From a virus (Duplodnaviria > Caudoviricetes): DNA of 56,152 bases. The stretch covers positions 1 through 56,152 of the IMG/VR virus record IMGVR_UViG_3300006737_007029. The stretch is one strand, 5' to 3'. The notes below the pieces were generated by a model that worked only from the letters and a program-made list of their open reading frames with translations, had not been told where the DNA came from and did not search any database. The position numbers were made by a program, and so were the translations under genes. Below are positions 23,728 to 56,135 of the stretch, in pieces. The first letter of the stretch is position 1; every line of letters starts with the position of its first letter.

Positions 23728-24720
23728 TTATGCTTGAGTTTGAGATACTTCAGCCGCTGTAATTGTGCCTATAGCATCGTTGTTCAATTGGTTAGTATTT
23801 GGTTTATTAAATGTCCATGATGATGTCAGTGTGCCGTCCACAACATCAAGTGCTGTTTGAGCCGCATCAGCGGCATCCTGTGGTGCTTGTCCTTCATCAC
23901 TTGAATCAGCCGCATCGTCTCTTGCTGTGGCCTTGATTGTAAGTACTTCGCCTTTACCGCCCAGTGATCCTGCTGTGCCTGAAACTTTTACTTCCCACTG
24001 CACATAGTTTGTTGTGTATGGTGACGAGTCAGCAAACATCTTTTGGACTACTGTATAAGAGCCACCATTACTGATGTCTGAATTCCAAAATCCATCATTA
24101 GCATTTGTATTCTGTGATCCTGATCCACTCAATCCATCAGTGGCTCCTGCAAAAGTAAATGTGGCAGCTTTGGTTTCAAATAAATCTTCCCACTCAGAAG
24201 TCTTGTCTGATGCTGTAAATGATGACAAGTTCCATACATGGGTGATTGACCCTCCAGCATTAAAAAAGTATCTTGCCGCGTCTGATGATGCAAAAGTAAA
24301 TTTGCATTCATGAATAGTGTTTGTGGTCCAATCTCCTGAGAATGTTCTGTTAATTGAGTTAGGATTGGATGATGCTGTGACATTGGCTCCTGCCACTGTG
24401 TATCTAGCATTTGTAACTGTGGTAATATCAGCACCTAGATTTGCTAAAATAGCCACTGTGTCTCCACCTGAAAGTGATCCAGATGAATTGTTAATACTTG
24501 TACCTTGGTGATCTGCAATTGATTTTAATCTGTCTTGCAAAGTGTTCCACTGTGCCGCTGTAATGGCATTACCTGCACTTACAGCTGAAATTGTGTTAGT
24601 TTGTCCGTAACCTTTAGTGCCGTTTCCATTACCCCAGATGCCATTAATGTTGTTCGTAGCATCATTGGCAAAATCATTATACTCATTATCTAGTATAGTA
24701 TCACCAGCAGTGTAACCCAT
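23728..24720 (-). CDS. virion structural protein (tail/fibre-associated)
   Basis: MGYTAGDTI..GYGQT..GNAITAAQWNTL, ARYFFNAGG; Thr/Ser/Gly/Asn-rich; TAATG-coupled to the upstream fibre gene. Confidence 0.65.
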   Translation of the reverse strand: MGYTAGDTILDNEYNDFANDATNNINGIWGNGNGTKGYGQTNTISAVSAGNAITAAQWNTLQDRLKSIADHQGTSINNSSGSLSGGDTVAILANLGADITTVTNARYTVAGANVTASSNPNSINRTFSGDWTTNTIHECKFTFASSDAARYFFNAGGSITHVWNLSSFTASDKTSEWEDLFETKAATFTFAGATDGLSGSGSQNTNANDGFWNSDISNGGSYTVVQKMFADSSPYTTNYVQWEVKVSGTAGSLGGKGEVLTIKATARDDAADSSDEGQAPQDAADAAQTALDVVDGTLTSSWTFNKPNTNQLNNDAIGTITAAEVSQTQA

Positions 24721-26267
24721 TAATTTTTACCTACCACAACTTCTATCGTTTTGATTCCATCATCTGTGCTAGATTCTAATGCTCTGCCTATTACTGCCTG
24801 GATTGCGTATCCATCTCCAGCTGCCTGAGCAACGCCATCTGTGTTAGATGAAACAAGTCTCTGTCCTTTTGTTACAGCACCTATGACTTTGCAAGGAACA
24901 CGACCTGATAAAGCAACGTAAGGATGTGAACTATCTGAACCAGCATCGGCATTCATTTTGTATGCTGGATCTGTTGATATAACTCCAAATACTTCTTGAT
25001 CATTTTCTTCTGTTGTTTTTGTGATTTCTTTTTCACCGCCAATTTTTACAACATCTCCTGACTCCATAGCACTGTCAGCTTCATATCTCTCAGCAAGGTC
25101 AGAATATTGTGCGGCAGTGGATGTAGCATGTAGAGTGGCATAGCCAACAATACTGACATCGCCTGCTGTTGTGCCATCTTCATTTGTTGTAACAAGTGCA
25201 AACTCATCTGCAGACTCATCCCAAATAAATGCAACATTTTGATTTATGCCTCTATCAAATACAAGACCAATATCTCTATCACTGATCGATGCCGCATTTT
25301 TGTTTAATATCATAAGTGGATCTTCAACCACCATGTTTGTTGTGTTCAATGTAGTTGTTGTACCGCTTACAGTTAAGTCACCTGATATTGTTAAGTTAGT
25401 TACAGTTGCTGATGCATCCGATCCAGTCAGTGTTAATACTGCTGTGTCGACTCCACCATCATTTACATTAAAAATAATATTTCCATCTGTAGTAACATTT
25501 TTAAATGTTGTGTTTGCTCCAGATTGTGTAACTGTTAAATCGCCATCTGCTCCTATAATCAAAGGTGAGTCAGAAGCTATAGTTACTGTACCTGTGGTTG
25601 TGTCTGAAGCATCTGATCTAAAATAGTTTGCGGCAACAACTCCACCCAATGCATCTGAGTCAGTTGCTGTGCCTTGGAACTTGTTGCTTGTAATTTGTGT
25701 TCCTAATGTAAGTCCTTTTTTAATTGTAGCATATCCTGATACAGCAATCTGTGGTGTGAATTCAACCGATGATGCCATTGCAACAATTGAATCTGATACA
25801 ACTAGTTGTGTAACAATTCTATCAGTACCTGTAGTATCAGTAATTGATTTTACAATGGCTCCTGATGTTCCTGATCCTGCTGTTGCTTGTGGTCCAACCA
25901 ATACCCAAGCAGTGCCTGAATACACATAAACTTGTCCGTTGACTGAATCATACCATAAATCACCTTGTGATCCTGTTGTAGGTGATGTGGCAGAAATAAT
26001 TGCTCCTGATACTGCCTTGAATGCTGTTCCATTATAAACTTCAACCTGTGCTGTCGAAGTGTTGTAATACATTTGTCCAGTCAAAGGATTTGTAGGTGAA
26101 GTTGAATTAGCAAAATTTTCTAAAAGTTTTACTGTATTTTCATTTAAGATTTCACCATACCCTGCATAGTTTTTTCCTATGAGTTGTAAACTGGTTGAGG
26201 TATCTAAAGTACCATCTGCTATTGTAGCTAGTACTGATCCGTCTGTTTTGTTAATTGTATATGCCAT
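24720..26267 (-). CDS. tail fibre with MAYTINKTDG N-terminal module and C-terminal Peptidase_G2-like autocleavage chaperone
   Basis: N-terminus shared with 27264..29408 and 30300..31895; C-terminal AQYSDLAERY..GVIST.PAY.MN..VALSGRVPCKV..IGRAL. Confidence 0.8.
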   Translation of the reverse strand: MAYTINKTDGSVLATIADGTLDTSTSLQLIGKNYAGYGEILNENTVKLLENFANSTSPTNPLTGQMYYNTSTAQVEVYNGTAFKAVSGAIISATSPTTGSQGDLWYDSVNGQVYVYSGTAWVLVGPQATAGSGTSGAIVKSITDTTGTDRIVTQLVVSDSIVAMASSVEFTPQIAVSGYATIKKGLTLGTQITSNKFQGTATDSDALGGVVAANYFRSDASDTTTGTVTIASDSPLIIGADGDLTVTQSGANTTFKNVTTDGNIIFNVNDGGVDTAVLTLTGSDASATVTNLTISGDLTVSGTTTTLNTTNMVVEDPLMILNKNAASISDRDIGLVFDRGINQNVAFIWDESADEFALVTTNEDGTTAGDVSIVGYATLHATSTAAQYSDLAERYEADSAMESGDVVKIGGEKEITKTTEENDQEVFGVISTDPAYKMNADAGSDSSHPYVALSGRVPCKVIGAVTKGQRLVSSNTDGVAQAAGDGYAIQAVIGRALESSTDDGIKTIEVVVGKN

Positions 26268-26277
26268 GATCTATTAA

Positions 26278-26285
26278 TATTTATA
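26278..26285 (-). promoter_or_regulatory. T4-like late promoter TATAAATA
   Basis: Exact TATAAATA on the minus strand, 10 nt before ATG 26267. Confidence 0.7.
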
Positions 26286-26295
26286 CATTCGATTT

Positions 26296-26754
26296 TTAGT
26301 CGAAATCAACCGCTTTCTTTGCCTTTTCCGTTGCTTCTTCTTCTGTTTCATAATGATAAGCATCTGACTCTAAGTAAGTCTTCTTTTTAAGTTTACTTGC
26401 TTCAACTACGTCCTTGATATGTGTCATCATGTCTGCAAATTCAGGAGTGTTAGGCATATCACTTTTGTCTAACATATCCATCATTATGTTTAATTGTTTG
26501 TGCAAAGGATATTTTGATTCAATATTTTCAGTGGTTTGTGCATTTACAACTGATTCGTTCAGCATAGGTTTTTCATCACAAGCTTTGACTGATCCAGTGT
26601 CATAGTCTCCATCATAAAAATCTAGTATTGGATCTATTTCAACATCTTTAAATTTAAATTTGCTTAGATCTAACATGCCATTGTCCGCAGGTTTTTCACC
26701 TAACAGAATGCCTGTTTTTGCATTGAACATTAATGTCATTTGTTGCTTGGCCAT
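26296..26754 (-). CDS. hypothetical protein, possible tail-fibre assembly chaperone
   Basis: Acidic 152 aa; IESKYPLHKQLNI; lies within the fibre cluster; AATAAATA 8 nt upstream. Confidence 0.55.
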   Translation of the reverse strand: MAKQQMTLMFNAKTGILLGEKPADNGMLDLSKFKFKDVEIDPILDFYDGDYDTGSVKACDEKPMLNESVVNAQTTENIESKYPLHKQLNIMMDMLDKSDMPNTPEFADMMTHIKDVVEASKLKKKTYLESDAYHYETEEEATEKAKKAVDFD

Positions 26755-26765
26755 TGTGCTGTTAT

Positions 26766-27260
26766 TTATTCGTATAAAAGACAGAGGCTATACTTTGTTG
26801 GCTCATGATCACCAATCGTTGTGACTTCATGATACAGTCCAATGTCCATATCCAGCAAACTGCCTACCTTTTCCTGTATGAAATGTTGATTATCATGTTC
26901 ATCATACCAACAAAAATGTGGTTCTCCAGCAGTCAAATACACTAATTTAAACTTCCAATATAGTCCTTGGGCATCACAATGTTTGACTAGATAATCTCCT
27001 GGTTCATATTTGTTCAATACCAATTGTGTACAGTGTTTGCGATCATGGGGTATTGTTTCAAATATTACATCAGCAAATGGATCATGCACATGAATGAACC
27101 AAGATGAAAATTGACTGATTGGTCCGCCAGGCTTTGCCTGATGATATTTGCGTGTGCCTTTTTCACGCCTTGTGAAATCTCCATGCTGTATTGCATGGTC
27201 AAGTATATGTTCAGCATTACCCAAGTAATTTTCAATGAGTGTAGGAGCCTGAATAGGCAT
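26766..27260 (-). CDS. 2OG-Fe(II) oxygenase
   Basis: LNKYEPGDYLVKHCD (HxD), LVYL, LYHEVTTI (distal His), TKYSL. Confidence 0.8.
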   Translation of the reverse strand: MPIQAPTLIENYLGNAEHILDHAIQHGDFTRREKGTRKYHQAKPGGPISQFSSWFIHVHDPFADVIFETIPHDRKHCTQLVLNKYEPGDYLVKHCDAQGLYWKFKLVYLTAGEPHFCWYDEHDNQHFIQEKVGSLLDMDIGLYHEVTTIGDHEPTKYSLCLLYE

Positions 27261-27263
27261 TTT

Positions 27264-29408
27264 TTATCCTGAAGTGTATGCCCAGTTAGAAGCACCACGT
27301 GTGAATATTAAGTCATTATTTCTTGTGTGGTTCAGTGTCGTGGTTGTGGTTGTTGCTACTGAATTCCTTGAATCACCAATTGCCGCCACATAGTTGGATG
27401 ATGAAGATGAAGAAGCAGTGATGCTTACACCAGCTATTCTTGCTTTAGTGCCTGATGCCGCATTTGGAGCCAATGTGTCTAATAGTGAGGCAATGTTTGC
27501 ATTTGACAATCCTGTTGTATTCAATGAGAAAAATAAATCAGTTGATATTGTTGCAATCTGTGTTGCCACATATGCTTTGATAGATTGTTGAGTGGCTAAT
27601 GCAGTGGCAGAATCGGAATCAAAAGCATCTTCATCTAGTATTTGACTCACTGTGGTCGTTCCTCCGACTGTGAAGTTGTCTGCAACAGTTAATGCTCCCG
27701 AAACTCTTAATCCTTCATCAATTTGTACAGCACCTGAATCGTTTGCTCTGATTGGACCACCTAATTCAATTCCATTGTTGATTGTAATAAATGTTGAATC
27801 ATCAGAACTTATTGTTTCTACAACAAGGTCACCTTCTATGCTCATGCCATCTTGCACTGTGATTAATGTAGAGTCTGTGCTTTTTAATATTGATGTGTCA
27901 GTGGTAGTAACAGTGATACTTGCTCCTGTGATGGTACCAGTAGTTTCTAAATTTTCATTATCAAAGTCTATCCCGCCACTTGAATTTACTATTGTGTTTC
28001 CGCTGATTGTAGTGTTCCCAGCTATCACTCCGGCAGTTCCTGTGACTGTGCCTTGAGATAAAATGTTTCCACTGGATGCTGTAATCGAAGCTTTCACAGT
28101 TGAATCTGATGAACTTGCTTCAACAATTATGTCATCGTTACTTGTTACCCCTGTTGTTGTAATTGGATTTCCGTTGTTGTTGATTGGTCCGAACCCATTC
28201 ACTATATTTCCTACTGATAAATCTCCTACTTGTGTCAATGAAGATGCTGTCACTCCTGATCCCAAAGTGGTAGCATTTAGAACAGATGTACCATTAACAC
28301 TGAACACTTTGCCTGTTGCAACAGATAGACCTGAAGATGACTCCAAGTATCCACCATCCGAACCTGTGACCAGTAATGTGACATCAGCTGATGCACTGCC
28401 ACCTTCTATATCCAGTCCTGCATTTTGGTTAGATGCTCTTGGACTTGCATCATTTACTACTAATTTAGAATCAGCAAATGACGATGATGATCCAGTAGTA
28501 ACTAGGTTGCCATCTACTTGTAAGTTTCCATAAACTCTCAAATCCGCAGAATTTGTTACTTCAACAGCATTAACTAGCACTGATGATTGATTCACTCTGA
28601 AAAAGATTGAGTCAAAGTTGTTGTTTTGAATAATGACATTGTTTGAATCAATAAACATTTGTCCTTCACTGTTAGCACCAAAAGATAAACCTTGATTATT
28701 CGTAATTGACAATGTACCACTCATGGTTGAATTGTCTGTGGTATTGATGTAATCGGCAGCTGGTGAACCGCCAAGTTCTAAAGCATTTTGAGCCGTACCG
28801 TGTAATCTAAATGTGGTTGAATCTGTGTCTGTGTAAAATGTTAATCCTTTTTGTATTGTGGCAGAATCAAATCCTGTTGGAGTTGATGCCAATGTTCTTT
28901 CAGTTGCTGATAATATTCCTACTCGCGTGCCATCTTGATACAGGCTTACAACATTTGCTGTGCCACCTCCTGATAAATTTTCTTCATCGACTAACCATCC
29001 TGACTTACCATCACCTGTTTTGTAAATCGGTCCAATCAGATCCCAATTGGTTCCATCATACATGTATAACTGATCATTAGTAATATGATTCCATAAATCT
29101 CCTGTCTTTACACCATCAGTTGGAGCAGTTGCTGAGTTGCGTGTTGCACCTATGGCAACAAAGTTTGATCCATCGTAAACTTTAAGTTTCAATCCAGTAA
29201 CATCATACCATAATTCTCCTCTAACAGGATTTGTTGGTGCTGAAGTACTTGCTGAATTCTCTAACAATTTAACAAGATTTTCGTTGAATGCTTGACCGTA
29301 TGACTGGTAATTTCTTCCAATCAGTTGCAATGATGTATCATTATTCAATACTCCATCTTCTACTTGTGCAACAATAGTACCATCAGTTTTGTTTATTGTG
29401 TATGCCAT
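27264..29408 (-). CDS. tail fibre/baseplate-attached fibre protein
   Basis: MAYTINKTDG..SLQLIGRNYQSYG..NENLVKLLEN..GELWYD; beta-rich S/T/G repeats; LATQQSIKAYV. Confidence 0.78.
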   Translation of the reverse strand: MAYTINKTDGTIVAQVEDGVLNNDTSLQLIGRNYQSYGQAFNENLVKLLENSASTSAPTNPVRGELWYDVTGLKLKVYDGSNFVAIGATRNSATAPTDGVKTGDLWNHITNDQLYMYDGTNWDLIGPIYKTGDGKSGWLVDEENLSGGGTANVVSLYQDGTRVGILSATERTLASTPTGFDSATIQKGLTFYTDTDSTTFRLHGTAQNALELGGSPAADYINTTDNSTMSGTLSITNNQGLSFGANSEGQMFIDSNNVIIQNNNFDSIFFRVNQSSVLVNAVEVTNSADLRVYGNLQVDGNLVTTGSSSSFADSKLVVNDASPRASNQNAGLDIEGGSASADVTLLVTGSDGGYLESSSGLSVATGKVFSVNGTSVLNATTLGSGVTASSLTQVGDLSVGNIVNGFGPINNNGNPITTTGVTSNDDIIVEASSSDSTVKASITASSGNILSQGTVTGTAGVIAGNTTISGNTIVNSSGGIDFDNENLETTGTITGASITVTTTDTSILKSTDSTLITVQDGMSIEGDLVVETISSDDSTFITINNGIELGGPIRANDSGAVQIDEGLRVSGALTVADNFTVGGTTTVSQILDEDAFDSDSATALATQQSIKAYVATQIATISTDLFFSLNTTGLSNANIASLLDTLAPNAASGTKARIAGVSITASSSSSSNYVAAIGDSRNSVATTTTTTLNHTRNNDLIFTRGASNWAYTSG

Positions 29409-29441
29409 ATAATGTATTTAACTGTTTTGTTTCATCAGGGT

Positions 29442-30296: not shown

Positions 30297-30299
30297 ATG

Positions 30300-31895
30300 T
30301 TACACCCTATACCAAATGTCTCCGTCAGATCCACCTGATGGCGCACTTGTTGATACTGTTCTTGTGCCAGTAGCATTTGATCCAACTGTGATAGAATTTA
30401 CTTGGCCTGTTAAATTTCCTGTGAATCCTGTTTGTGTTGTGATCCTACCACTGACATTTACACCTTCGTTTATCTGTATAGCAGAAGAATCTGTAGATTG
30501 TATTATATTCACATCCAATGTTGGTACCGTGATTGTTGTAGTGCCAGTAATTGCACCAGTCACAGCAAGTGTTGATCCGTCAAATTCTAAATTGGATTCT
30601 GCATTCAGGGCCGAAGTACTTACGGCAGTAACAATTCTGTTGTTCGCACCGTTGCTTACAGATATTGTTCCTGTAAGATTTGATCCGTCTCCTTTGTAAG
30701 CTGTGGCTGTCACTGTGCCTTTGACATTAAGACCATCTTCAACAGTGACTTCTGTTGAATCAGATGATGATATTGTGTTTACATTCAATGTATCATTTAT
30801 CTGTACCGCAGTTGAATCAGATGATGAAATTTCGTTCACAGTGATATTATCATCCAATGCAATATTGACTGTGTTGGATCCTGCTGTTACCGATGTGGTT
30901 ACGCTGTTTCCTCCAGCAAATACTAACTCTTCTGTTTTTGTGACAATGGATCCTGTGTTGGAAGACAGATCACTAAACTCCAGTGTGCCGCCACCTATTT
31001 GATTATCCACATATGCTTTGATTGATTGTTGTGTAGCAAGTTTTGTTGCACTGTTTGAGGACATATCATCCTCGTCTTTGATTCCTGTTACTGTGGCTCC
31101 GTCTCCCGCAATAGTAAAATCTTCATCTGTGACTAGTGATCCATTTACTGTGAGAGCACCACTCACATTCAAAGCGTCTTGTACTTGAATAGCAGTAGAA
31201 CTTGAACTGGAAATTGTTTCAGTGTCTATATTATTAATTTGTACTGCTGTCGAATCAAAGGATGTAATATCTCTTGTGTTCACTGTTGGTGCAGACACAG
31301 TGCCAGACACATTTAAAGTGTCATTGATCTGAATTGCTGTGGAGTCTGTTGATGCAATAGTGTTGACATTCAACGTGTCATTAATTTGTAATCCAGTTGA
31401 ATCAGAAGATTCAATTTGATTCACTTGCAACACATCATTTATTTTGATTGATGCTGAATCTGTTGCTGATATTTCACTTATGATAATATGATCTCTTGTG
31501 GCTATGGACAAAGTGTCACCACTCACACTGGTTGTGATGTTACTGCCTCCAGCAAATTGAAATGTTTCACCAATGTTAATACCTGTGCCTGTTGAATCAT
31601 CACCAACTATGGTGAAAGCATCACCGCCTGCTGTGGCAATGTTGATAAATTCTGTGCCAGAATATAATTTTAATTTTGCATTGGTTGTATCATACCATAA
31701 TTCACCTGTTAATGGAGCTGTAGGTGCTGTGCCAGATGAAGAATTTTCTAAAAGTTTTACTAAATTTTCGTTTATTCTTTCACCATAATTTTGAAATAAT
31801 TTTCCAGGAAGTGATACAGAACTGGTTGTGTCTAATTGGCCGTCTTGTATAACTGCGAGTATTGTTCCATCTGTTTTGTTGATTGTGTATGCCAT
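30300..31895 (-). CDS. tail fibre protein with ~19-aa DST repeats
   Basis: MAYTINKTDG N-terminus; repeated I.S.DSTA.QINDTLNV; ends APSGGSDGDIWYRV. Confidence 0.78.
   Translation of the reverse strand: MAYTINKTDGTILAVIQDGQLDTTSSVSLPGKLFQNYGERINENLVKLLENSSSGTAPTAPLTGELWYDTTNAKLKLYSGTEFINIATAGGDAFTIVGDDSTGTGINIGETFQFAGGSNITTSVSGDTLSIATRDHIIISEISATDSASIKINDVLQVNQIESSDSTGLQINDTLNVNTIASTDSTAIQINDTLNVSGTVSAPTVNTRDITSFDSTAVQINNIDTETISSSSSTAIQVQDALNVSGALTVNGSLVTDEDFTIAGDGATVTGIKDEDDMSSNSATKLATQQSIKAYVDNQIGGGTLEFSDLSSNTGSIVTKTEELVFAGGNSVTTSVTAGSNTVNIALDDNITVNEISSSDSTAVQINDTLNVNTISSSDSTEVTVEDGLNVKGTVTATAYKGDGSNLTGTISVSNGANNRIVTAVSTSALNAESNLEFDGSTLAVTGAITGTTTITVPTLDVNIIQSTDSSAIQINEGVNVSGRITTQTGFTGNLTGQVNSITVGSNATGTRTVSTSAPSGGSDGDIWYRV
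30440..31480 (-). repeat. ~19-aa repeat (I-x-S-x-D-S-T-A-I-Q-I-N-D-T-L-N-V) in a fibre
   Basis: About 8 variably degenerate copies; related copies in 27264..29408 and 32642..34975. Confidence 0.75.
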
Positions 31896-31914
31896 CGTGT
31901 GTATTTAATTAAAA

Positions 31915-32574: not shown

Positions 32575-32583
32575 GTATTTTAT

Positions 32584-32634: not shown

Positions 32635-32641
32635 AATGTAT

Positions 32642-34975: not shown

Positions 34976-34991
34976 TTTTTTTCTTAAATTT

Positions 34992-47912: not shown

Positions 47913-47913
47913 C

Positions 47914-50900
47914 TTAATAATATCCTGAGCCTGATGATCCTGATGTGATGGTTGAATTCACCGATGTAGTAGCAGTTGCACTTGCACCTGTGACAGCCGC
48001 TCCGGTAGTTGATGATACCACAGTGCCTGTTGATTTAAGTTGTTCTGCTGTGTTAGATGATATTATCTGAACATTATCAACTGTGGCAGATGAAATAGGC
48101 AATTGATGGCCATCCACAGTAATTTCAAACAATGATCCAAATGAAGTTGTTGCACTTGCTGGTACAATCACAATACTCAACACATCTGGTGCCAATACAT
48201 TGTGCAAGTATGCCGCTAATTCTGTAAAGTAAAATGTGTCGCCGAAATCCCATAAAGCCAAAGTGAAATAATCATTGATTGCTTCGATCAAATTAGACTT
48301 GATTTGATTATCTGACACTGCTGTTGCTTTATTTTTTACAACTTTAAATGTTGCCTGCAGAGATGTTTCAGCTCCTTTACCAAACAACAGCACATACTCT
48401 CCTGGATTAAAAACTATTGTGTCACTTACACTTTTTAATTGATTCAGCGTTGGCAAATATGTGTCATTTAATTCTGCCACAGTTGGTGGTTGAGGCTCGG
48501 CTGTCAATTGATTTGCATTTAACCAAGCACGGAAATCTATATCATATGATTTTGTCATCACATAACAGTCTATAATGTTACTCACTGATGGATCTAATCG
48601 TCTGTCTCTAGGAGCACCATGATTGTATCTGTAAATCAAACTTTGTCTGCCCAGTTTAGCAGTGTATCCTGTCAGTTCCTCTAACAGTTTTGTAGTTGAA
48701 TTGTATGTCTTGAATTCGTCGTCTTGATAAAAATAAAATTTTTGTCCATCTGCATAAATGGCAGGATTAGTGATATCAGTTTCTTTTGGCACTGTGACAA
48801 ACTCTGTATTGTTAATTGGATTCAATTGCTCAAATCCGTTTACTGTCACAGTTTGAAAGAATACGTATTTTTCATTAATGTCTGTTGTGGGCGAAACAAT
48901 AAGAGCAAATAAATCAGGATTGTCTACCACTCCATCATCATCACCGTCAAATAATCCTATTTGTATTTTGCGTGTATCGGAATATCCATCTGCACCAACA
49001 ATATTTTTTACAATCTGCCATTTATAATCAAATGTCAAATTTGATACAAAATCAGGTTTTGTGTTGGATTTCAAAATGGTGACTGAATCTTTTACAACCA
49101 AGCCTGTTTCAGGATCAATTGCTTTTACTGACTCATCGAAATAAAATTTATTTCTTGAAAAACTTTGGAATATGTATTGTGTTGCTCTGTTGAATACTGT
49201 GTACGTCAATCCATTGGTAGAAAATCTTATCAACCAAGATGCATCTAAACTTGCACTTGTTTTGTTTTCCGCAAAGGATAAATCAAAATCTCCAGTGTTC
49301 AAGTTGTCATCATCAATTACATACCATGCTCTGGTTGTGTTGTTGTATCCTAGTCCAAAGTTTTTGAATGCAACTACTTTGTCTATGATAGCAGTTTCTA
49401 ATGTTGTAGAGATACTGTCTACATACTTAGGAATAATTTCTTTAAGTTCTGCATCAGTAGGAATAAGATCCGATAACACAATAGGCCCAGTACCATCAGC
49501 TAGTTCTCCTTGTCCGCCATTGGACCCATCACCCTCAACACTGATAGTTTTTGTCCACATTATTTCAGCACTGCCAGGATGGCCAGGCGCACCAGACATC
49601 TGTGTGCCTAGTTCAGTCATAAAGTGACTGCCAGATGTTGGCTCAAACTTTAACAATGCACCTTCTGTCACATATTGCAGATTAGACACACTAGATGTGC
49701 CAACTGCTAATACACTCGAATCTGCCCCTTCTGCAAGGAAGTAACCTGTGACTTGATTCCCAGTCTGTGTCGATTTTTTCCAAGTTTTAAGTCCAGAAAT
49801 TTGTGGTCTCGGAAAATTATCATAATAAAATTGTTTGAGTGAACTGGATTCAAATATGTTTGCAACAGAACTAGTAATAACTTTTCTTGCATCATCCCTT
49901 GTTGTGAATGAAAAATCAAATGATTCAGTAACAATGTCTCTGTACACCATTCCATCATCAGCCACTATATCAGTTTCTGAGTAAACTCCTGTTGGATCTG
50001 TAACATCTAAAAATCTTGAAGTACCACTTATAGCTCTCACTTGTGATCTTGCTTTTGCCAATGAAGGATTTTGTGTCAAAGGAATAATTTGATAATCTTC
50101 TGGAGTAATCATCCTGTTGTTGGCATAATACACTTGAGGAGCTTGTGTTTTGATGTCCACTATGCTTTGAGACTGAGCCGCATTAGTCACTGTGCTTGTG
50201 AGTGATGCTGTCACGGTTAATGTGTTGATTTGATTATTGCGTGACACATACTCGACATCAAATGAAATATTTTGCATGTCTCCTGTTTGAATTCTATATG
50301 TCAGTCCGTTACTTTGTCTGTAAAACACACGGAAGTTTCCTACAGGCATTGTTCCATATGTGCCATCTGAAAATACAAGATCAATTTGATCATTTGTTTT
50401 TGTAACCACAGCATACTGGTTAGTAATATTGTTGGCCAATGTGTTGTATATCACATTGTTGCCTGTGATAGCAGGCACTTTGGTCCATGCTTGTTCTAAC
50501 AATCCGTTTTGGTCTAGTTTGAACAAGAATACATCATCGTTATTGATTCCGTTTTCTTCAACAGTCACAATAGTGTTTGGAAGTTGTGAATCGATAGTAA
50601 AGTCTGTGCTGTTCATTTCTCCTTGTTTGAATGTGAAGAAATAACCAGTTGAATTAGAACTAAATCCTCTTCCATCATTTTTGTACAAGAAAGAAAGTGA
50701 ATTGCCTGGCACTGGATTTTCTTCTATAACAAATCCATCGTCTAATGCAACAGGCACAATTTCAAAATCCATTGCTATTCCGTTGATGTTGCGAGAAAAT
50801 GATTGTGTTGGCAATCCAATATTACTAGAGTTTAATCTGTATTGATCTGTTGTTATTCCACCAACAGTTCCTGTTGATTGTGGTTTTCCAACTGTTTGTG

Positions 50901-51399
50901 CTCTTGGAAGAGCAGAGTTAAGCACAGCATTAAATTGTTCCTGCCAATTTGTGTTTGTAACATCATTCCAAAGTATCGGAGTGTTTGCTAAATCGTTTCC
51001 ATTTGCATCTAACACAGTCTCAGTGGTTGTGATCGAGGTAACTTTTAGTTGTCCTGATCCAGAAATATTTCTTTTGGGTTGAAATGATATGAGTCTTGCT
51101 AATCTTAACACTGACTCTTTACGTTCAGCAAGATCAATAAAGTTTTCTCTAGCATTTAGATCAACTCTGTATGAAATAGATTGTGCCACATAAGAAATCA
51201 AATCAATCAGTGCAAGATATTCTGATGATTCGATGTAGTCATTGAACGACTCTGAATAGTTTAATCTAAGGTAATCAATCAGTGTTCGTCTTATGGTATC
51301 AAAATCATAAGATTTAAAGTCCGCTTGTGAAAACGTTCTGTATATTCTCTGCCAAGTGTCATTTACAAGTAGAGAGTTCTGTCTATCATTAGATGGCAT
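47914..51399 (-). CDS. baseplate wedge subunit (T4 gp6-like)
   Basis: DFDTIRRTLIDYL..FNDYIESSE..LIDLISY..ENFIDLAERKESVLRLARLISF; VFSDGTYG; IKTQAPQVYYANNRMITPEDY. Confidence 0.85.
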   Translation of the reverse strand: MPSNDRQNSLLVNDTWQRIYRTFSQADFKSYDFDTIRRTLIDYLRLNYSESFNDYIESSEYLALIDLISYVAQSISYRVDLNARENFIDLAERKESVLRLARLISFQPKRNISGSGQLKVTSITTTETVLDANGNDLANTPILWNDVTNTNWQEQFNAVLNSALPRAQTVGKPQSTGTVGGITTDQYRLNSSNIGLPTQSFSRNINGIAMDFEIVPVALDDGFVIEENPVPGNSLSFLYKNDGRGFSSNSTGYFFTFKQGEMNSTDFTIDSQLPNTIVTVEENGINNDDVFLFKLDQNGLLEQAWTKVPAITGNNVIYNTLANNITNQYAVVTKTNDQIDLVFSDGTYGTMPVGNFRVFYRQSNGLTYRIQTGDMQNISFDVEYVSRNNQINTLTVTASLTSTVTNAAQSQSIVDIKTQAPQVYYANNRMITPEDYQIIPLTQNPSLAKARSQVRAISGTSRFLDVTDPTGVYSETDIVADDGMVYRDIVTESFDFSFTTRDDARKVITSSVANIFESSSLKQFYYDNFPRPQISGLKTWKKSTQTGNQVTGYFLAEGADSSVLAVGTSSVSNLQYVTEGALLKFEPTSGSHFMTELGTQMSGAPGHPGSAEIMWTKTISVEGDGSNGGQGELADGTGPIVLSDLIPTDAELKEIIPKYVDSISTTLETAIIDKVVAFKNFGLGYNNTTRAWYVIDDDNLNTGDFDLSFAENKTSASLDASWLIRFSTNGLTYTVFNRATQYIFQSFSRNKFYFDESVKAIDPETGLVVKDSVTILKSNTKPDFVSNLTFDYKWQIVKNIVGADGYSDTRKIQIGLFDGDDDGVVDNPDLFALIVSPTTDINEKYVFFQTVTVNGFEQLNPINNTEFVTVPKETDITNPAIYADGQKFYFYQDDEFKTYNSTTKLLEELTGYTAKLGRQSLIYRYNHGAPRDRRLDPSVSNIIDCYVMTKSYDIDFRAWLNANQLTAEPQPPTVAELNDTYLPTLNQLKSVSDTIVFNPGEYVLLFGKGAETSLQATFKVVKNKATAVSDNQIKSNLIEAINDYFTLALWDFGDTFYFTELAAYLHNVLAPDVLSIVIVPASATTSFGSLFEITVDGHQLPISSATVDNVQIISSNTAEQLKSTGTVVSSTTGAAVTGASATATTSVNSTITSGSSGSGYY

Positions 51400-51404
51400 A
51401 ATAA

Positions 51405-51412
51405 TATTTATA
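51405..51412 (-). promoter_or_regulatory. T4-like late promoter TATAAATA
   Basis: Exact TATAAATA on the minus strand, 5 nt before ATG 51399. Confidence 0.7.
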
Positions 51413-51438
51413 GTTTTTAAAAAGTGCTGAGTTTATGA

Positions 51439-51891
51439 TTAGGCCGCAGTGTAAACTTCTGAAGGACCAGCCAATAATCCTTGCTGTGAGTCGAATAACA
51501 AGTCCATAGATTCACCTAATCCGTATCCAGTGTACACAACTGACACTTTTACTTGTAGTCCTTGTTCGTAATCGTTAACTTCTATGCTGTCCATTTCAAC
51601 ACGTGGATCATAGTTTACAATCGCTTCAACTTCCTCAATCACAGCGTTTCTGGTTTCATCATCCAACGGATCCATCAAATATAACCAAATATTTGTACCA
51701 AAGTCTGGATTTTCCAGTTTTTCGCCCTTTAATATATTGAAATGATTGAGTAAATCTTGTTTAACTAATTCTATATCATATAGTTTAGTGTCAGCAAAGT
51801 CTCTGCCAACAGAACTGTGTCCTCGAAATATTCTTGTGTTAGACACACCTTGTGTGGTTGAATTTACTTCATTGAAGTTTTTTACTGCCAT
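51439..51891 (-). CDS. baseplate wedge subunit (gp25/GPW family)
   Basis: DIELVKQDLLNHF..KGEKLENPDFGTNIW.YL.DPLD..YDPRV. Confidence 0.9.
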   Translation of the reverse strand: MAVKNFNEVNSTTQGVSNTRIFRGHSSVGRDFADTKLYDIELVKQDLLNHFNILKGEKLENPDFGTNIWLYLMDPLDDETRNAVIEEVEAIVNYDPRVEMDSIEVNDYEQGLQVKVSVVYTGYGLGESMDLLFDSQQGLLAGPSEVYTAA

Positions 51892-51895
51892 AAAA

Positions 51896-52057
51896 CTATT
51901 TTACAATAGCCGAACCATCACATTGAACGCAATCGCATTTGTAACATCTATCGGCATCTGTACCCTCAGCGGACATGGCAAACTCTTTCATTACAGGAGA
52001 TTCACCAGTGCAGTGTGACGGTGTATTGCATTTTTTACATATATCTTGATCAGCCAT
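51896..52057 (-). CDS. 53-aa cysteine-rich peptide (absent from the ORF track)
   Basis: Manual translation MADQDICKKCNTPSHCTGESPVMKEFAMSAEGTDADRCYKCDCVQCDGSAIVK*; fills the PAAR-gp25 gap; TAAGTA 5 nt upstream. Confidence 0.65.
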   Translation of the reverse strand: MADQDICKKCNTPSHCTGESPVMKEFAMSAEGTDADRCYKCDCVQCDGSAIVK

Positions 52058-52065
52058 ACTATTAC

Positions 52066-52326
52066 TTATCCTACAAACACATCACTGGAACCTGTGGCAG
52101 CCTCGCCACACACTGACGCAACATCGCCAGCATTACACACTGCTTTGCCGCCAACAAATACTGCATTGGACCCGGCCACTATGGTCTGTTCTAAGTGTGG
52201 AGCAAGTCCATGTGCGGCCACTGTATCACCATTCACAATTATTTCTTCGCCATTAGCTATTACTGTGGTCTGTGATGGAACTAAATCACCACCTGCCGCA
52301 TCGTTGTCTCTGCATACTCCCGGCAT
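52066..52326 (-). CDS. PAAR-domain spike tip protein (T4 gp5.4-like)
   Basis: MPGVCRDND..TVIANG..GDTVAAH..GSNAVFVGGKAVCNAGD..CG..TGSSDVFVG; TAATG-coupled to gp5. Confidence 0.88.
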   Translation of the reverse strand: MPGVCRDNDAAGGDLVPSQTTVIANGEEIIVNGDTVAAHGLAPHLEQTIVAGSNAVFVGGKAVCNAGDVASVCGEAATGSSDVFVG

Positions 52327-54176
52327 TACACACCTCTCCTTGCTTGAGCATCTTCATTGTCAGGTGTTTCTGTAAATCTTTCGTCTGTAAGTTCTCTGTC
52401 TGTGAACAATATTCCCGACTTGTCTACTGACACAATATTATTGAATACAACTTTTCTTTTGTTTTCATGTTCAGCATAAGGTTCTGCTGTTGGCACACGT
52501 TTCATAATAGATTGTCTTTTAATTTCTTTTACTGTTTTGTCTATACTTTCTGGCACAATTACATTTTCAAATGTGCTTAATTGTTGAACACGTTCTCCTT
52601 CATCACCAACAACATTTTCTACCACAATGTTTGCTCCAACCACACCAGATACAACTTTGCCTGAAGTGTTAAAATGTATTTCACTTGCTGTGTTTACCAA
52701 ATGATCATTGGCGGCAAAAATTTTGTTGTCATTTGCAACCTCTAGTACATTATCATTACCAACATAACTTTTACTGTCATTTCCTATGAAAGTGTTGAAA
52801 TTATTTTTTACTCTCAGCTGTAGTGTACCAGTGCCGGAACTATCACTGGCTGAAGCACTGCCTACTTCAATTTCTGCAAAATTTTGTGCATACAAAGAAA
52901 AATCATCTCTAGTTTGCAATCGCATGTTTTTTTGTGCTTCAAATATCATTTGTTCTTCTGATTTAACAGCAACATCTTTTTGTGCCAGCATCTCAATATC
53001 TTCGTTGGCATCAATGTGTATTCTACCTGTCACAATGTCTTCATTTGAATTTATAAATTGATCTGTTTTGTTTTGCCCTGTGGCTTTCATGTTGATGTTT
53101 CTGGCCGCTTCTATATTAATATCACGTTCTGCTCTAAGATTGAAATCACCAATGGTATGCACACTGAAAGACTCATCTGCATACATGTCTATTTTGCCAT
53201 CTTCTGACAGTTCTACCCATGCTGTGCCTGTGCTGTTTATGATGTACACAGTGTTTTCTGAATCATGCAACAATACTTGAGCACCTTTGCGTGTTCTAAA
53301 TCTTATCAATTCATTTTCGATAGGTGTTTTTCCTTGTACACTAGGAGTACCATCATCCATTACAAACGAATGTCCACCCAATCTTGAGTGTGCAAATTTT
53401 TCTCCTATTTTTCCATGTCTGTTTACAGAGTCTGTGTTAGGAGCCGCAAACTGCCCTTCGAAGTCTATAGGACCCGGTGTGCTGATGCCAAACACTTGTG
53501 AAGGTGTTTCACGTCTCGCTGACGAACTGGTGATGCCTCTTATTTTGTCTTTGATCAATCCTTGTGCCAACAATGACTCTGCCAAGGGTGTGTGCACCGG
53601 TCTATATTTTGCACTGTTATCGGTAGCATAATCTGTGTTGATGCCTACAGCATCGTCTGTAATTTTTCTGTTTGGTTCTGCCACAGGTAAATCTTCAATG
53701 CCTAATCCACCAAATCGTTTTTGTGCATCGCCTCCTCCAGGACCGCCTCCACCTTCTTCAATACTGCGTGGCGATGATGCTAATCCTGGCACCATGTGGT
53801 TGATCTGCATGTCTGGCACACAACCTATCCAAAACCCTTCATTGACATTTCCATTGGCAAACATCACAAGCACCTGTGTACCTATATCTGGCGGCACTGC
53901 CCAAAAACCATATGACTTTTGTGTAGCATGAAAGTCTCCACTGTTGGTACCTCTTGCATCACGCACAGGAGTTTGGCCAGCAAAGGGTGAACAGTATCTC
54001 ACTGTGTATGTGACGTCAGCTACAGCTCTATCAGGAACGTCTTTGTGTGTTTGTAAGGCAGGGATAGAAACTTCCAATCGGCCGGATCTGTTTACATCAG
54101 CAGAGTTCATTACTGTGCCTATGTATACACCCATTGAAGGTGACATTGGATTGAACTCTCTTTTATGCTGTGGCAT
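52326..54176 (-). CDS. baseplate hub/spike protein (gp5/VgrG-like, no lysozyme domain seen)
   Basis: OB-fold YIGTV..SGRLEVSIP..YGFWAVPPDIGTQVLVMF..WIGC; GHSFVMDDG; beta-helix repeats; VPTAEPYAEHEN. Confidence 0.85.
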   Translation of the reverse strand: MPQHKREFNPMSPSMGVYIGTVMNSADVNRSGRLEVSIPALQTHKDVPDRAVADVTYTVRYCSPFAGQTPVRDARGTNSGDFHATQKSYGFWAVPPDIGTQVLVMFANGNVNEGFWIGCVPDMQINHMVPGLASSPRSIEEGGGGPGGGDAQKRFGGLGIEDLPVAEPNRKITDDAVGINTDYATDNSAKYRPVHTPLAESLLAQGLIKDKIRGITSSSARRETPSQVFGISTPGPIDFEGQFAAPNTDSVNRHGKIGEKFAHSRLGGHSFVMDDGTPSVQGKTPIENELIRFRTRKGAQVLLHDSENTVYIINSTGTAWVELSEDGKIDMYADESFSVHTIGDFNLRAERDINIEAARNINMKATGQNKTDQFINSNEDIVTGRIHIDANEDIEMLAQKDVAVKSEEQMIFEAQKNMRLQTRDDFSLYAQNFAEIEVGSASASDSSGTGTLQLRVKNNFNTFIGNDSKSYVGNDNVLEVANDNKIFAANDHLVNTASEIHFNTSGKVVSGVVGANIVVENVVGDEGERVQQLSTFENVIVPESIDKTVKEIKRQSIMKRVPTAEPYAEHENKRKVVFNNIVSVDKSGILFTDRELTDERFTETPDNEDAQARRGV

Positions 54177-56135
54177 CTATAATCCTAATCCTTGATTTAA
54201 TCTACGTAATACCTTATTGTTTTTTCTCTTTTTATTATTATTAGCTATCTTGTCTATGGATACGTAACCGTTTGGTCCTCTATTGTTTTTGTTTTTGTAA
54301 CTTACATTTCTAGTAGATCTGCCTAGTGCATCGTCATTAAAGGATCCACCTTGTAGATTCAAACTGTTTGAAAGTCCTCTTGTAGCAGGAGCATTACCTG
54401 AGCCAGCAAATGGTGCGATTCCTTTTGCTGGGGAAATATATTTCTTATCATTTTCTTGTTCTCTGAATCTTGTCATTGTAATTGTTTGTTGGAAAACACC
54501 ACCTTCAAAATTAGACTCACATAATATTACTCTAAATTTTCCTTGGAAAAAAGCAGACAAATTAAGTCTCATCAATCCTGTGTCGTCATTAATATCAGAA
54601 GGATATCTTGCATTCAATTGTACTACAATATTATTTGCATCTGGAGATACAGACCCGTCTGGTTCTGTTTGTCCATCCGATGTCATTTGATTGTTGCCAG
54701 GATTAAGTGTTTTTTGTTCAATCCAGTAAGGATCTCCTAATATTGTGAGATCCACAACAATTAAATCTGCGGCAGGATCTTCTAAAATTTGTCTGAATAC
54801 ATCTGCCATTTCTCTATTGGCCGCAGGAGCATCTGGATTTGCAGTGTCAGTAGATTCTTGTGCTGTTGGCACTTTTGCCGCTGATGTTCCACCTTTGCCT
54901 AAAGAATTATCATCAAAACTTGGACCTTGATTAGATGTGCTTTCTTCCTCTAAATTATCGTCATCGTTTTTAAGTTTATTTTGCATGGCATCATAGTATC
55001 TGCCTGGTTGGAAATAAGCAAACTGATATTTTATATCTAGATTAAGCACATCTTTGTTTTCGCCTGTGTAGATATAATTGTAAGTTCTAACTGGCGATAC
55101 ATCGCTTGACTCTACTGCAATCTTTTGTTGTCTAAGTGAATAGCTAAATTTGTATTGCGGCTCGCCTAATCCGTTATCCAAATCTATTATTTCTGTGCTA
55201 GGCATTATTTTGATTGTGCTATAAATTTCATCTGTTGAATCATTCGAAGCATCAAACTGATTCAATATAAATTTAGAATTTTGTACTACATGAGTAAGAT
55301 ACTCCACAATAGATGTTCCTTTTTGAGCTGTGACTTTACGTGAAGCAGAATCACCGCCCCCTGGACCACCTGCAGGAGATGTGTTAATTGCCTGATTTGC
55401 CGATGCTCCGGGATCACCAAATCCTAATTTAGATTTTATTATGTCTGCAGAGGATCCTTCGATATCAAATTCATACAAGTGAGGTTTGACAACAACTTTG
55501 TCATCATCCTTTTTTACTTTATAATTTTCATTTAATCCAACAAAGAAATTTTGCACTAAAGTTTGTACATCGGTTCCAGTATGAATTACGGATTCATTTA
55601 GTTTGTCATATGCTGTTAGTTGCTGTATATAGTTGTAAGGCGCGGCCTGTATGTTGTATCTTCCGCCTCCTTCATCAATATCCAAATCAACTTTAAACAG
55701 CCTACAAGGAATATATCTTGTAGTTCCGGAAATTTTACGTGGCACACCATTGTCATCATTACCGACAAATTCAATTTTTAACACATACACTGCGGATAAA
55801 TGATTTTCATATCCTTGTTGCATCGCGGCTTGTATAAGAGCAGGGATCAAATCAACTCCTAATGGTTCTGTTATGTCAAAAAATACTTGGTATGCATTAG
55901 TGGCAAAAGCACTAGGGGTAGGAGCAACAGTGCTCCTTACTGTTAATCTTTCAATATAATAATCATATGATAATGGGCCTGTGCCTTGTCTTCCTTTACC
56001 GCCTGTCTTGGCAATAACAACTCCTGGATTTCTTCTGTATGACCCACTGTTGAATTGTTGTTTCGACACACAACTTAAGGTAATAACATAATTCATTGTT
56101 TCGAAATCCAACAAAGGATTGCCCCTAGCACCCAT
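54177..56135 (-). CDS. baseplate hub protein (gp27/GpD-like)
   Basis: NPLLDF..NYVITL, ITEPLG, YVLKIEFVG, RTYNYIYTGENKDVL, LTILGDPYW, GKFRVILCESNFEGGVFQQTI; GGAG RBS; abuts gp5. Confidence 0.7.
   Translation of the reverse strand: MGARGNPLLDFETMNYVITLSCVSKQQFNSGSYRRNPGVVIAKTGGKGRQGTGPLSYDYYIERLTVRSTVAPTPSAFATNAYQVFFDITEPLGVDLIPALIQAAMQQGYENHLSAVYVLKIEFVGNDDNGVPRKISGTTRYIPCRLFKVDLDIDEGGGRYNIQAAPYNYIQQLTAYDKLNESVIHTGTDVQTLVQNFFVGLNENYKVKKDDDKVVVKPHLYEFDIEGSSADIIKSKLGFGDPGASANQAINTSPAGGPGGGDSASRKVTAQKGTSIVEYLTHVVQNSKFILNQFDASNDSTDEIYSTIKIMPSTEIIDLDNGLGEPQYKFSYSLRQQKIAVESSDVSPVRTYNYIYTGENKDVLNLDIKYQFAYFQPGRYYDAMQNKLKNDDDNLEEESTSNQGPSFDDNSLGKGGTSAAKVPTAQESTDTANPDAPAANREMADVFRQILEDPAADLIVVDLTILGDPYWIEQKTLNPGNNQMTSDGQTEPDGSVSPDANNIVVQLNARYPSDINDDTGLMRLNLSAFFQGKFRVILCESNFEGGVFQQTITMTRFREQENDKKYISPAKGIAPFAGSGNAPATRGLSNSLNLQGGSFNDDALGRSTRNVSYKNKNNRGPNGYVSIDKIANNNKKRKNNKVLRRLNQGLGL

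Follow-up and report, generated by a model that had tools for sequence, protein, structure and literature searches.

D-S-[S/T] is enriched in the giant protein and tail fibres of an uncultured jumbo myovirus, probably as a conserved turn element

Introduction

In Bacteroidota, O-glycosylation uses the sequon D-(S/T)-(A/I/L/V/M/T), extended with S/G/C/F, and the sugar is placed on position 2 (PMC8729774; PMC8550257); according to the available parts of these papers the modification is limited to proteins that leave the cytoplasm (PMC8729774). In mycobacteriophages, phage transferases are described as glycosylating the C-termini of capsid and tail-tube subunits (cited in PMC12619734), and marine pelagi- and cyanomyophages carry "host recognition clusters" of tail fibre, GT8 and deoxy-sugar genes, for which the authors, in the sections available, favour a role in modification of the host O-chain (PMC7029224). 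Here we report on the tripeptide D-S-[S/T] in the virion proteins encoded by the IMG/VR virus record IMGVR_UViG_3300006737_007029, whose entire 56,152 bases are called the window below. An earlier note on this DNA had proposed that the tripeptide saturates the virion proteins, that it resembles an O-glycosylation sequon, and that the glycosyltransferases (GTs) of the phage itself would be its likelier readers. The excess of D-S-[S/T] is real, depends on the order of the residues, acts at the level of protein and is found throughout the clade. As far as the compared genomes indicate, it goes with a subfamily of giant proteins and with a fibre repeat, and not with enzymes. D-[S/G]-[S/T] is probably a conserved structural loop or turn element, of the tight-turn or strand-cap kind, in which D-S-[S/T] and D-G-[S/T] would be sisters.

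Results

The part of the window between 23728 and 56135 holds 14 structural open reading frames (ORFs): hub, gp5-like, gp25-like and gp6-like proteins, a protein of 4306 amino acids (aa), fibres of 531, 714 and 779 aa, and smaller ones. The features on which the argument rests are the following, with motif numbers given as observed against expected; repeat units were located with a hidden Markov model (HMM) and models were made with AlphaFold2 (AF2).

34992..47912, minus strand: 4306-aa giant virion protein, baseplate-associated (PHROG 10938 virion structural protein, E=1.8e-297; Pfam FG-GAP_2 and CBM_5_12)
39813..41579, minus strand: FG-GAP/integrin-alpha-like beta-propeller segment of the giant protein, aa ~2112-2700 (internal repeats, blade alignment, AF2, Foldseek)
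30300..31895, minus strand: 531-aa tail fibre, 7 D-S-[S/T] against 1.4
31167..31478, minus strand: six-unit run of a 19-21-aa repeat in the 531-aa fibre, aa 140-243 (hmmsearch with the unit HMM)
30726-30845 and 30456-30518, minus strand: further repeat units of the 531-aa fibre (hmmsearch with the unit HMM)
27264..29408, minus strand: 714-aa tail fibre, 4 D-S-[S/T] against 1.5, with repeat units at aa 503-567 (27708-27902)
32636..34975, plus strand: 779-aa fibre with an Mtd_N-like N-terminus (Pfam Mtd_N, E=2.5e-13; PDB Mtd, E=1.3e-11) and repeat units at aa 103-142 (32942-33061)

Together the 14 structural ORFs hold 42 D-S-[S/T] where 13.43 are expected (Poisson p=3.6e-10), and all counts of the earlier note were reproduced exactly. 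The giant protein has 20, against a shuffle mean of 4.73 (expected 4.7-4.8), a number reached in none of 2000 shuffles. The three fibres have 15 against 4.2, that is 7 against 1.42 in the 531-aa (p=0.0005), 4 against 1.52 in the 714-aa (p=0.06) and 4 against 1.19 in the 779-aa fibre (p=0.027). Two motifs in the 330-aa protein (0.57 expected) and one apiece in the 515-, 219-, 1161-, 616- and 652-aa proteins, which is chance level, complete the set; the ten structural ORFs other than the giant protein and the fibres jointly reach 7 against 4.5 (p=0.17). The virion proteins as a whole are thus not saturated with the motif as had been claimed: the excess is real and limited to four proteins. In the enzyme island (7707 aa), where the earlier note had seen about two motifs, there are indeed 2, against 3.8 expected, so that the comparison with shuffled sequences it had suggested leaves an enrichment in the structural set and none in the island.

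Of the tripeptides that occur three or more times in the structural set, DST is the most over-represented and DSS the fifth; none of 300 shuffles of the whole set yields any tripeptide as extreme as DST (p=1.0e-6). When residues are shuffled within local segments of 10-100, the expectation stays at 4.5-5.1 for the giant protein and 4.1-4.5 for the fibres, therefore local richness in Ser, Thr and Asp is not the cause. The order of residues matters, since in the giant protein [ST]SD is found 3 times against 4.8, DT[ST] 4 against 6.3, NS[ST] 2 against 3.8 and ES[ST] 1 against 2.9. Ser codons inside the motif mirror general Ser usage (TCA 19/42 compared with 391/910), which places the signal at the protein level; a DNA word or a codon effect as its cause is ruled out by these counts. 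When occurrences were clustered by similarity of their flanks (identity of at least 7/18 residues, a level attained by 3 of 20,000 random pairs), the 42 fell into 33 clusters, one of which joins 9 fibre units and another 2 FG-GAP blades, and 33 against 13.4 expected is still an enrichment (p=4.7e-6).

The giant protein is matched by Pfam FG-GAP_2 (E=3e-21) and by the carbohydrate-binding module CBM_5_12. Self-comparison places blades between aa 2112 and 2700 at a spacing of ~60-130, mostly 60-65, residues, and three blades have D-S-[ST] at an equivalent point, the loop that separates "GAP" from "G-x-V-Y-V-F". This propeller segment holds 8 of the 20 motifs of the protein, all of them in inter-strand loops. 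An AF2 model of aa 1990-2700, with a predicted local distance difference test (pLDDT) of 77.5 and a predicted template modelling score (pTM) of 0.77, resembles integrin alpha chains in Foldseek (E ~1e-10; target-normalised TM up to 0.64). All ten motifs in the model start at non-strand positions and eight lie wholly in loops, where the background is 39% (p=0.01), which agrees with the earlier impression that the motifs sit in loop-like places.

A search of the protein collection gave a graded series of 21 orthologues, which are 4201-4387 aa long and whose identity over aa 1900-2700 runs from 85% down to 34%; P0018, P0019 and P0024 onwards were left out as non-orthologous FG-GAP proteins on account of length, low identity and partial coverage. 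A search of related loci with aa 1900-2700 found the close relative G001 only. All 21 orthologues are enriched, with 13-26 D-S-[S/T] against 4.7-5.9 expected. In their alignment the motif falls into 83 site clusters, and the 18 sites with an occupancy of at least 8/21 account for 259 of the 389 occurrences; the 130 outside them are only slightly above chance, 108.8 being the expected sum (p=0.03). In the window protein itself 16 of 20 motifs are at sites common to at least 8/21 orthologues and the other 4 compare with 4.8 expected by chance. At aa 235, 2012, 2253 and 2391 D-S-[ST] is invariant in 21/21, with 16 flanking columns that average 0.52-0.67 identity; one of these sites is D-S-T-D, with both Asp fixed. 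Over the 11 best-conserved sites, identity is 0.67-1.0 in the Asp and Ser columns and averages 0.50-0.67 in the 16 columns around them. The orthologues of the phages PA5oct and Atu_ph07 show gaps, or lack the domain, at the alignable motif sites. The suggestion that the motifs are lineage-specific loop insertions therefore fits several sites, those where PA5oct and Atu_ph07 have gaps, but the excess as such sits in positionally conserved sites and in the repeat, and not in scattered gains.

The residue at the middle position is restricted. Of all D-x-[ST] in the 21 orthologues only those with Ser (2.67x) and Gly (2.40x) are enriched, and Thr stands at 0.73x; the variants seen at conserved sites are DSA (23) and DG[ST] (9), with no D-T-x, while at position 3 Ser and Thr alternate freely. 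D-G-[ST] itself is found 15 times against 4.7 in the giant protein of the window, 9 against 3.9 in the fibres and 11 against 4.5 elsewhere. It is enriched in all 21 orthologues (10-18 against ~4.5) and has conserved sites of its own, 194 of 298 occurrences being at positions with an occupancy of at least 8/21. In the AF2 model of the propeller, D-G-[ST] forms two-residue hairpin turns of the blades. The other tripeptides of the sequon class are not in excess in the 14 structural ORFs: DT[ST] 12 against 16.8, DS[AILVM] 19 against 19.8, DT[AILVM] 28 against 24.5. The shape of the excess, with Ser or Gly and never Thr at position 2, thus differs from that of a Bacteroidota-like sequon, the reading from which the earlier note had started.

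In the fibres the motif belongs to a repeat unit of 19-21 aa with the consensus I-x-V-N-x-I-S-S-x-D-S-[ST]-A-I-Q-I-N-D-x-[VL]-N, for example L-N-V-N-T-I-A-S-T-D-S-T-A-I-Q-I-N-D-T-L-N. Nine of the 15 fibre motifs form one flank-identity cluster and 10 lie in units that the unit HMM matches over their full length; the HMM also picks up degenerate copies in the window with D-S-A, D-S-G or S-S-T. Six of the seven motifs of the 531-aa fibre are in units recognised by the HMM and the seventh belongs to a different conserved module, V-G-D-D-S-[ST]-G. The repeat region has at least 300 metagenomic homologues at E<=0.001, and among the matches listed (114 homologues, six near-identical orthologues left out) 82 contain, in total, 338 units. 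In these units the motif columns are conserved as D 313, S 337 and S/T 332, and the other columns as N-6 305, S 316, I-4 292, A+3 294, D+8 292 and N+11 270, with Q+5 (260) and another N (254) somewhat less kept. Most non-hydroxyl positions are conserved to much the same degree as D-S-[ST] itself. The HMM comes from motif-bearing units, which tilts these numbers to the motif; the entire unit nevertheless behaves as one conserved building block. The repeat appears to be widespread in uncultured phage fibres, judging from these homologues; some sources label the repeat-bearing proteins "adhesin/invasin".

An AF2 monomer of aa 95-245 of the 531-aa fibre (40 sequences; pLDDT 83) has no intra-chain secondary structure, and Foldseek with this model gave no match at E<=10. 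In VIA-align all nine rows at Z>=2 are trimeric spike beta-helices (T4 gp5, P2, Mu and contractile injection systems), at a weak Z of 2.1-4.0. The repeat probably builds an intertwined trimeric beta-helix shaft with D-S-[ST] at its corner. In a sequence search of PDB with the 531- and 779-aa fibres the repeat region was unmatched, the N-terminus of the 779-aa fibre alone matching Mtd. A tblastn search of GenBank phages with the 531-aa fibre matched its N-terminal attachment domain and a shared "ILDEDDM...ATQQSIKAYVD" domain and left the repeats unmatched; the matches in S-B05 and HTVC115P are uninformative on the motif because their alignments are outside the repeats. Pfam gave no family over the repeat in six fibre-repeat homologues, and matches of OB_HELZ2 and TIG in these six were taken as spurious, being below or barely at threshold with no significant individual domain. 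The unrelated IMG/VR phage contig G004 (L018) has fibres of ~50-aa modules that end in L-D-S-S-D-S-T-K-I-T-I-A-E-A-L-D-V-T-G, another conserved D-S-[ST] just ahead of a strand.

The candidates for readers of the motif are in the left-hand part of the window, 1-23434, which encodes enzymes, among them an AAA+/DUF2201 pair, and several unannotated ORFs:

21829..23434, minus strand: two paralogous putative GT8-like (GT-A) glycosyltransferases of 275 and 262 aa (profile against glycogenin-1; hhalign)
3689..21520, no strand assigned: sugar-building and tailoring island (Pfam and NCBIfam; 2 D-S-[S/T] only)

By Pfam and NCBIfam the island has an NAD epimerase/dehydratase, a DegT aminotransferase, a DesII-like radical S-adenosylmethionine (SAM) enzyme (E=1.1e-95) and a NodU-like carbamoyltransferase; it also includes five tandem radical SAM paralogues with an N-terminal twitch (at most 10 kb from the fibre genes), a conserved 294-aa ORF and a 1000-aa ORF. 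The order is fibres at 23728-34975, the GT8-like pair at 21829-23434, and the radical SAM, carbamoyltransferase and sugar genes at 3689-20654. Within this order a conserved module, 14219-23434, adjoins the fibre genes and consists of the 262- and 275-aa GT8-like paralogues, a 115-aa ORF, the 294-aa ORF and one to five twitch radical SAM genes. The profile of the 275-aa family (A3) matched 19 glycogenin sequences over its positions 9-107, in the nucleotide-sugar-binding N-terminal half, with glycogenin-1 as the best (E=1.5e-6), and hhalign joins it to the 262-aa family (A2) at a probability of 99.6 (E=1.1e-24), which makes the two paralogues. The aligned place of the D-x-D motif reads D-S-D in the 262-aa and E-A-D in the 275-aa protein. 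Pfam Glyco_transf_8 is matched by none of 18 family members and PF03407 weakly by two (E=0.026). We regard the two proteins with moderate confidence as GT8-like putative transferases; in this respect the proposal of phage-encoded GTs has found two candidates, directly beside the fibre genes. Searches of the unannotated island ORFs as single sequences with Pfam (E<=5), NCBIfam and PHROG gave no transferase family, Pfam found no glycosyltransferase among 38 ORFs from the 34 kb of G001 that lie beyond the window, and the A2, A4 and A5 profiles had no significant match in PDB. A4 was considered as a relative of A3 and was found unrelated by hhalign.

Homologues of one of the radical SAM genes occur in 554 IMG/VR stretches, of which 80 were kept and 79 analysed, with G001 left out; the 79 loci are mutually related, so that totals over them are not independent. 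They have 77 ORFs that match the 294-aa family, 75 the 275-aa and 74 the 262-aa family, and, from the fibre module, 60 that match the 515-aa and 56 the 330-aa protein. The order of the module beside the fibres is kept in three relatives: G002, of 69 kb, whose giant protein is 32% identical; G006, of 342 kb and 95% complete; and Ralstonia phage RsoM2USA, the only cultured phage found with the module (217327-221946, L176), where all its genes are annotated as hypothetical. The available part of the RsoM2USA paper describes ORF361 as a likely virion component from bands in polyacrylamide gel electrophoresis (SDS-PAGE) and mass spectrometry, and gives no transferase or radical SAM name to any gene of the module (PMC8504454). 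In the complete genomes of PA5oct and Atu_ph07 the GT8-like family is absent. The motif and the module compare across genomes as follows.

This window and G001: module present; giant protein 20 against 4.8; fibres 15 against 4.2
G002: module present; giant protein 10 against 5.1 (p=0.04); fibres 2 against 0.7, 1 against 1.4, 1 against 0.2, 0 against 0.5
G006: module present in full synteny with all five radical SAM genes; giant protein 7 against 3.77 (p=0.09); proteome 64 against 57.9; capsid protein 1 against 0.18
RsoM2USA: GT8-like pair, 294-aa homologue and a radical SAM gene; giant-like protein 3 against 2.2; eleven structural ORFs 9 against 6.7
PA5oct: GT8-like module absent; giant protein 4 against 2.9
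Atu_ph07: GT8-like module absent; giant protein 4 against 3.4

The capsid count is from G006 only, though major-capsid loci were gathered for five relatives, and a search of five large relatives for the sheath family PF04984 gave a match in one, below the cut-off. The excess fails to track the module, as G006 and RsoM2USA have the module and no significant excess, which speaks against the phage GTs as readers of the motif. Over the 79 loci fibre-like ORFs have D-S-[ST] in about two-fold (1.7-2.4x) and D-G-[ST] in about three-fold excess, and the enzyme families are mostly at 0.2x-1.7x, with a small carbamoyltransferase set at 2.9x.

The window is a fragment of an uncultured jumbo myovirus, as may be judged from its relatives at protein level and from a colinear partial contig. 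Megablast of GenBank phages with 8.2 kb of the window gave no match, and the placement is by protein-level matches: the 1161-aa gp6-like baseplate wedge protein matched 97 phage records at 33-35% identity, among them Salicola phage SCTP-2, Sinorhizobium phage Phosso, Agrobacterium phage Atu_ph07 and the Rak2/GAP32 group. The source would accordingly be placed in the Rak2/Atu_ph07-like jumbo myovirus lineage. G001, a 91-kb IMG/VR contig with a CheckV completeness of 24%, is colinear with the window at ~90% nucleotide identity. Hosts of the closest cultured relatives are Proteobacteria. The earlier note had described the promoters here as of the TTGACA/TATAAT type, unlike those of Bacteroidota; we count 41 sigma-70-like hits, and shuffled sequences give 42.8 +/- 6.5, therefore the type of promoter is uninformative on the host. 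The structural features that have not been listed so far are these:

47914..56135, minus strand: baseplate proteins, namely 1161-aa gp6-like, 150-aa gp25-like, 616-aa gp5-like hub and 652-aa protein; motif at chance (1 against 1.5, 0 against 0.09, 1 against 0.44, 1 against 0.47)
23728..27260, minus strand: 330-, 515-, 152- and 164-aa structural or accessory ORFs; motif at or near chance (2 against 0.57, 1 against 0.83, 0, 0)

Several observations touch these proteins and the island. Homologues of the 330-aa protein in the 79 loci (window copy 23728-24720) are depleted of D-S-[S/T], 14 against 29.7 (0.47x), though they are rich in Ser and Thr, opposite to the adjoining fibres. The N-terminal region of the giant protein (aa 150-275; ~47088-47465), which is absent from PA5oct and Atu_ph07, has a conserved G-H-P-F ... 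Y-x-C-x-x-H-x-x-M-x-G-R-I-I-I and holds the invariant D-S-S at aa 235. The pattern recalls what we take to be the His, Cys, His and Met ligands of type-1 copper (cupredoxin) domains, a lead only, for which Pfam gave no support at E<=1. In the island, the C-terminal part of the 1000-aa ORF (6918-9920) is homologous to the 294-aa family (20636-21520; hmmsearch E=9.1e-33), which has invariant V-D-G-D-N and N-G-G motifs and no match in PDB or Pfam; an ESM Atlas search with the 1000-aa ORF found viral hypothetical clusters only. The 355- and 345-aa ORFs (11361-13435) are paralogous members of a single family, both being matched by the A5 profile (E=5e-115 and 7e-129), with no family or PDB match, and G006 has seven copies across its genome. 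In Atu_ph07, 116908-123069 (L089) has three annotated radical SAM genes among hypotheticals, beside the fibre gene gp176 and the giant gene gp180; families A2-A5 were not found in this region. Outside the window G001 encodes a plastocyanin-family copper protein (PF00127, E=2.3e-15), GTP cyclohydrolase I, a phosphoribosyltransferase, an IMP dehydrogenase/GMP reductase, a sodium:solute symporter, a family B DNA polymerase and an SbcCD-like pair; such auxiliary genes are typical for marine phages and may be a hint of the host.

Discussion

The excess can be attributed to two sources, homology of the fibre repeat and ~16 anciently fixed loops of the giant protein. In the fibres D-S-[S/T] would be the corner of a shaft repeat of 19-21 residues. 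In the giant protein it would mark inter-strand loops, including the FG-GAP loop "GAP...G-x-V-Y-V-F", kept since before the divergence to 34% identity. Each would be an Asp-capped tight turn with a small central residue, possibly with a metal or ligand contact as well, and the excess would then reflect homology and purifying selection on particular elements of the fold, with covalent modification unneeded. Both the turn geometry and the trimeric beta-helix are what we infer from these patterns and models.

Several points weigh against D-[S/G]-[S/T] as a purely structural turn. The unit HMM was built from the ten motif-bearing units of the window, so its search is biased to D-S-[ST]. Four of the ten modelled motif sites coincide with loops of pLDDT<50, which are probably flexible and exposed, as an acceptor site would be. 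In the 90%-identical G001 38 of the 42 motifs are retained where the background is 80% (p=0.055). The invariance of the four sites in the giant protein goes beyond what most turns require and suits a role that depends on the residues themselves, and free alternation of Ser and Thr at position 3 is typical of O-glycosylation acceptors. Finally, neither the GT8-like family nor the excess is found in PA5oct and Atu_ph07, a weak positive co-occurrence.

Some of these points bring back the idea of cytoplasmic O-glycosylation, with the D-S-[S/T] loops as acceptors, the GT8-like pair as its enzymes and the island as the source of the sugars. We think this unlikely. Two glycogenin-like GT-A paralogues follow directly after the fibre genes in a module that is conserved beside fibres (75, 74 and 77 family-matching ORFs in the 79 loci, and also G002, G006 and RsoM2USA), a deoxy-amino-sugar pathway and a carbamoyltransferase are in the same island, and the mycobacteriophages set a precedent, as far as the citing paper describes it (cited in PMC12619734). 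The predicted location of motifs in exposed, partly low-confidence loops, the four invariant sites amid variable flanks with Ser and Thr alternating at position 3, and the joint absence in PA5oct and Atu_ph07 point the same way. Against this, G006 and RsoM2USA have the module without a significant excess and G002 shows a two-fold one only; Ser at position 2 is swapped with Gly and never with Thr, D-G-[ST] being equally enriched and site-conserved; and most non-hydroxyl positions of the fibre repeat are about as conserved as D-S-[ST]. We know of no transferase shown to read the tripeptide. DNA glycosylation is an alternative possible destination of the sugar, and comparable marine islands of fibres plus GT8 are read, in the available sections, as modifying the host O-chain (PMC7029224). 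The full scenario, in which an uncultured marine jumbo-phage clade fixes D-S-[S/T] as the sequon of the GT8-like pair for an unusual, carbamoylated, radical-SAM-tailored deoxy-amino sugar, seems to us still more doubtful; relatives with the module and without the motif would in that case glycosylate other sites or targets. A somewhat better, though low, probability is given to binding loops, for Ca2+ as in the cation hairpins of integrin FG-GAP repeats or for a glycan of the host surface. Eight of the 20 giant-protein motifs are in the integrin-alpha-like propeller of a protein that also has CBM_5_12, both Asp of the invariant D-S-T-D site are fixed, and the motifs are in surface loops, in proteins that form the receptor-facing parts of the virion. 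Integrin cation sites follow the multi-acidic pattern D-x-D-x-D-G, which the motif loops appear to lack, and the motif also recurs as a corner along the shaft repeat, an improbable setting for the periodic binding of a ligand. Contact with a metal or ligand would overlap with the structural turn.

That the motif marks another post-translational change, such as the work of radical SAM enzymes or phosphorylation, we consider very improbable. The five tandem twitch radical SAM genes are within 10 kb of the fibres in a conserved arrangement, and there is a weak NCBIfam similarity to peptide-modifying radical SAM maturases, at E 1e-3 to 1e-5 and far under the family cut-offs; however, the best matches of the radical SAM proteins are the DesII-like sugar enzyme and a generic twitch-domain family, and G006, with all five genes, has no motif excess. 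An artefact of chance or of the composition of Ser/Thr/Asp-rich proteins has practically no probability left. It is true that the pattern was picked after seeing the data, and that Ser/Thr-rich fibre ORFs of unrelated marine phage loci have a mild excess (136 against 94.5). The whole-set and local shuffles, the unenriched reversed and permuted tripeptides of the giant protein and the excess in 21/21 orthologues refute it.

What follows depends on the reading. If D-[S/G]-[S/T] is a structural turn, the value of the result is mainly descriptive: it defines a widespread shaft repeat of fibres and, for a jumbo clade of which little is known, several fixed loops in its largest virion protein, useful for the annotation of fibres in metagenomes and for constructs in structure work. 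It is also a warning that a tripeptide excess in virion proteins can come wholly from repeats and conserved sites. If D-S-[S/T] were instead a sequon, it would be the first phage-encoded sequon for protein glycosylation, a concrete and testable site for glycosylation of marine phage virions, and a substrate for the islands of fibres plus GT8 plus sugar genes.

Comparison with described systems

DST and DSS formally fit the extended Bacteroidota motif, as given in the available part of the paper (PMC8729774). That sequon, however, also takes Thr at position 2 and a hydrophobic residue at position 3, and here D-S-[S/T] is the only member of the class that is enriched. Tailed-phage virions assemble in the cytoplasm, so that exported substrates there stand against cytoplasmic virion proteins here, and the hosts of the nearest cultured relatives are Proteobacteria.

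The clusters of marine pelagi- and cyanomyophages are the nearest likeness in gene content, since here too the fibres are contiguous with GT8-like and deoxy-sugar genes. In the sections of that paper available they are hypervariable (PMC7029224), whereas the present arrangement is syntenic in G002, G006 and RsoM2USA, belongs to a jumbo lineage and has five twitch radical SAM genes. The mycobacteriophages show, in the passage that cites them, that phage transferases can decorate virion proteins, with C-terminal glycans (cited in PMC12619734). This is in contrast to an internal tripeptide of fibres, and the window has no capsid or tube gene.

With the FG-GAP propellers of integrin alpha chains the giant protein shares FG...GAP...G-x-V-Y blades of 60-65 residues, and its AF2 model matches integrin alpha; the propeller is here inside a 4306-aa phage virion protein. 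The classical cation-binding hairpin of integrins differs from the loop that bears the motif, and the position of that hairpin is D-G-[ST] here, not D-S-[ST]. The triple beta-helix spikes (the C-terminal helix of T4 gp5, P2 gpV and Mu) have in common with the fibre repeat a short period with alternating hydrophobic residues and the lack of an intra-chain sheet in the monomer model. The T4 gp5 repeat has 8 residues, whereas the period here is 19-21 with a near-invariant S-S-x-D-S-[ST] corner, and Z is far below the level of a shared fold.

Asx-turn and ST-turn caps and the D-G turns of beta-hairpins place an Asp, a small residue and a hydroxyl residue between strands. The swap of Ser and Gly at the centre of the motif and the exclusion of Thr from it are what such a tight turn would impose.

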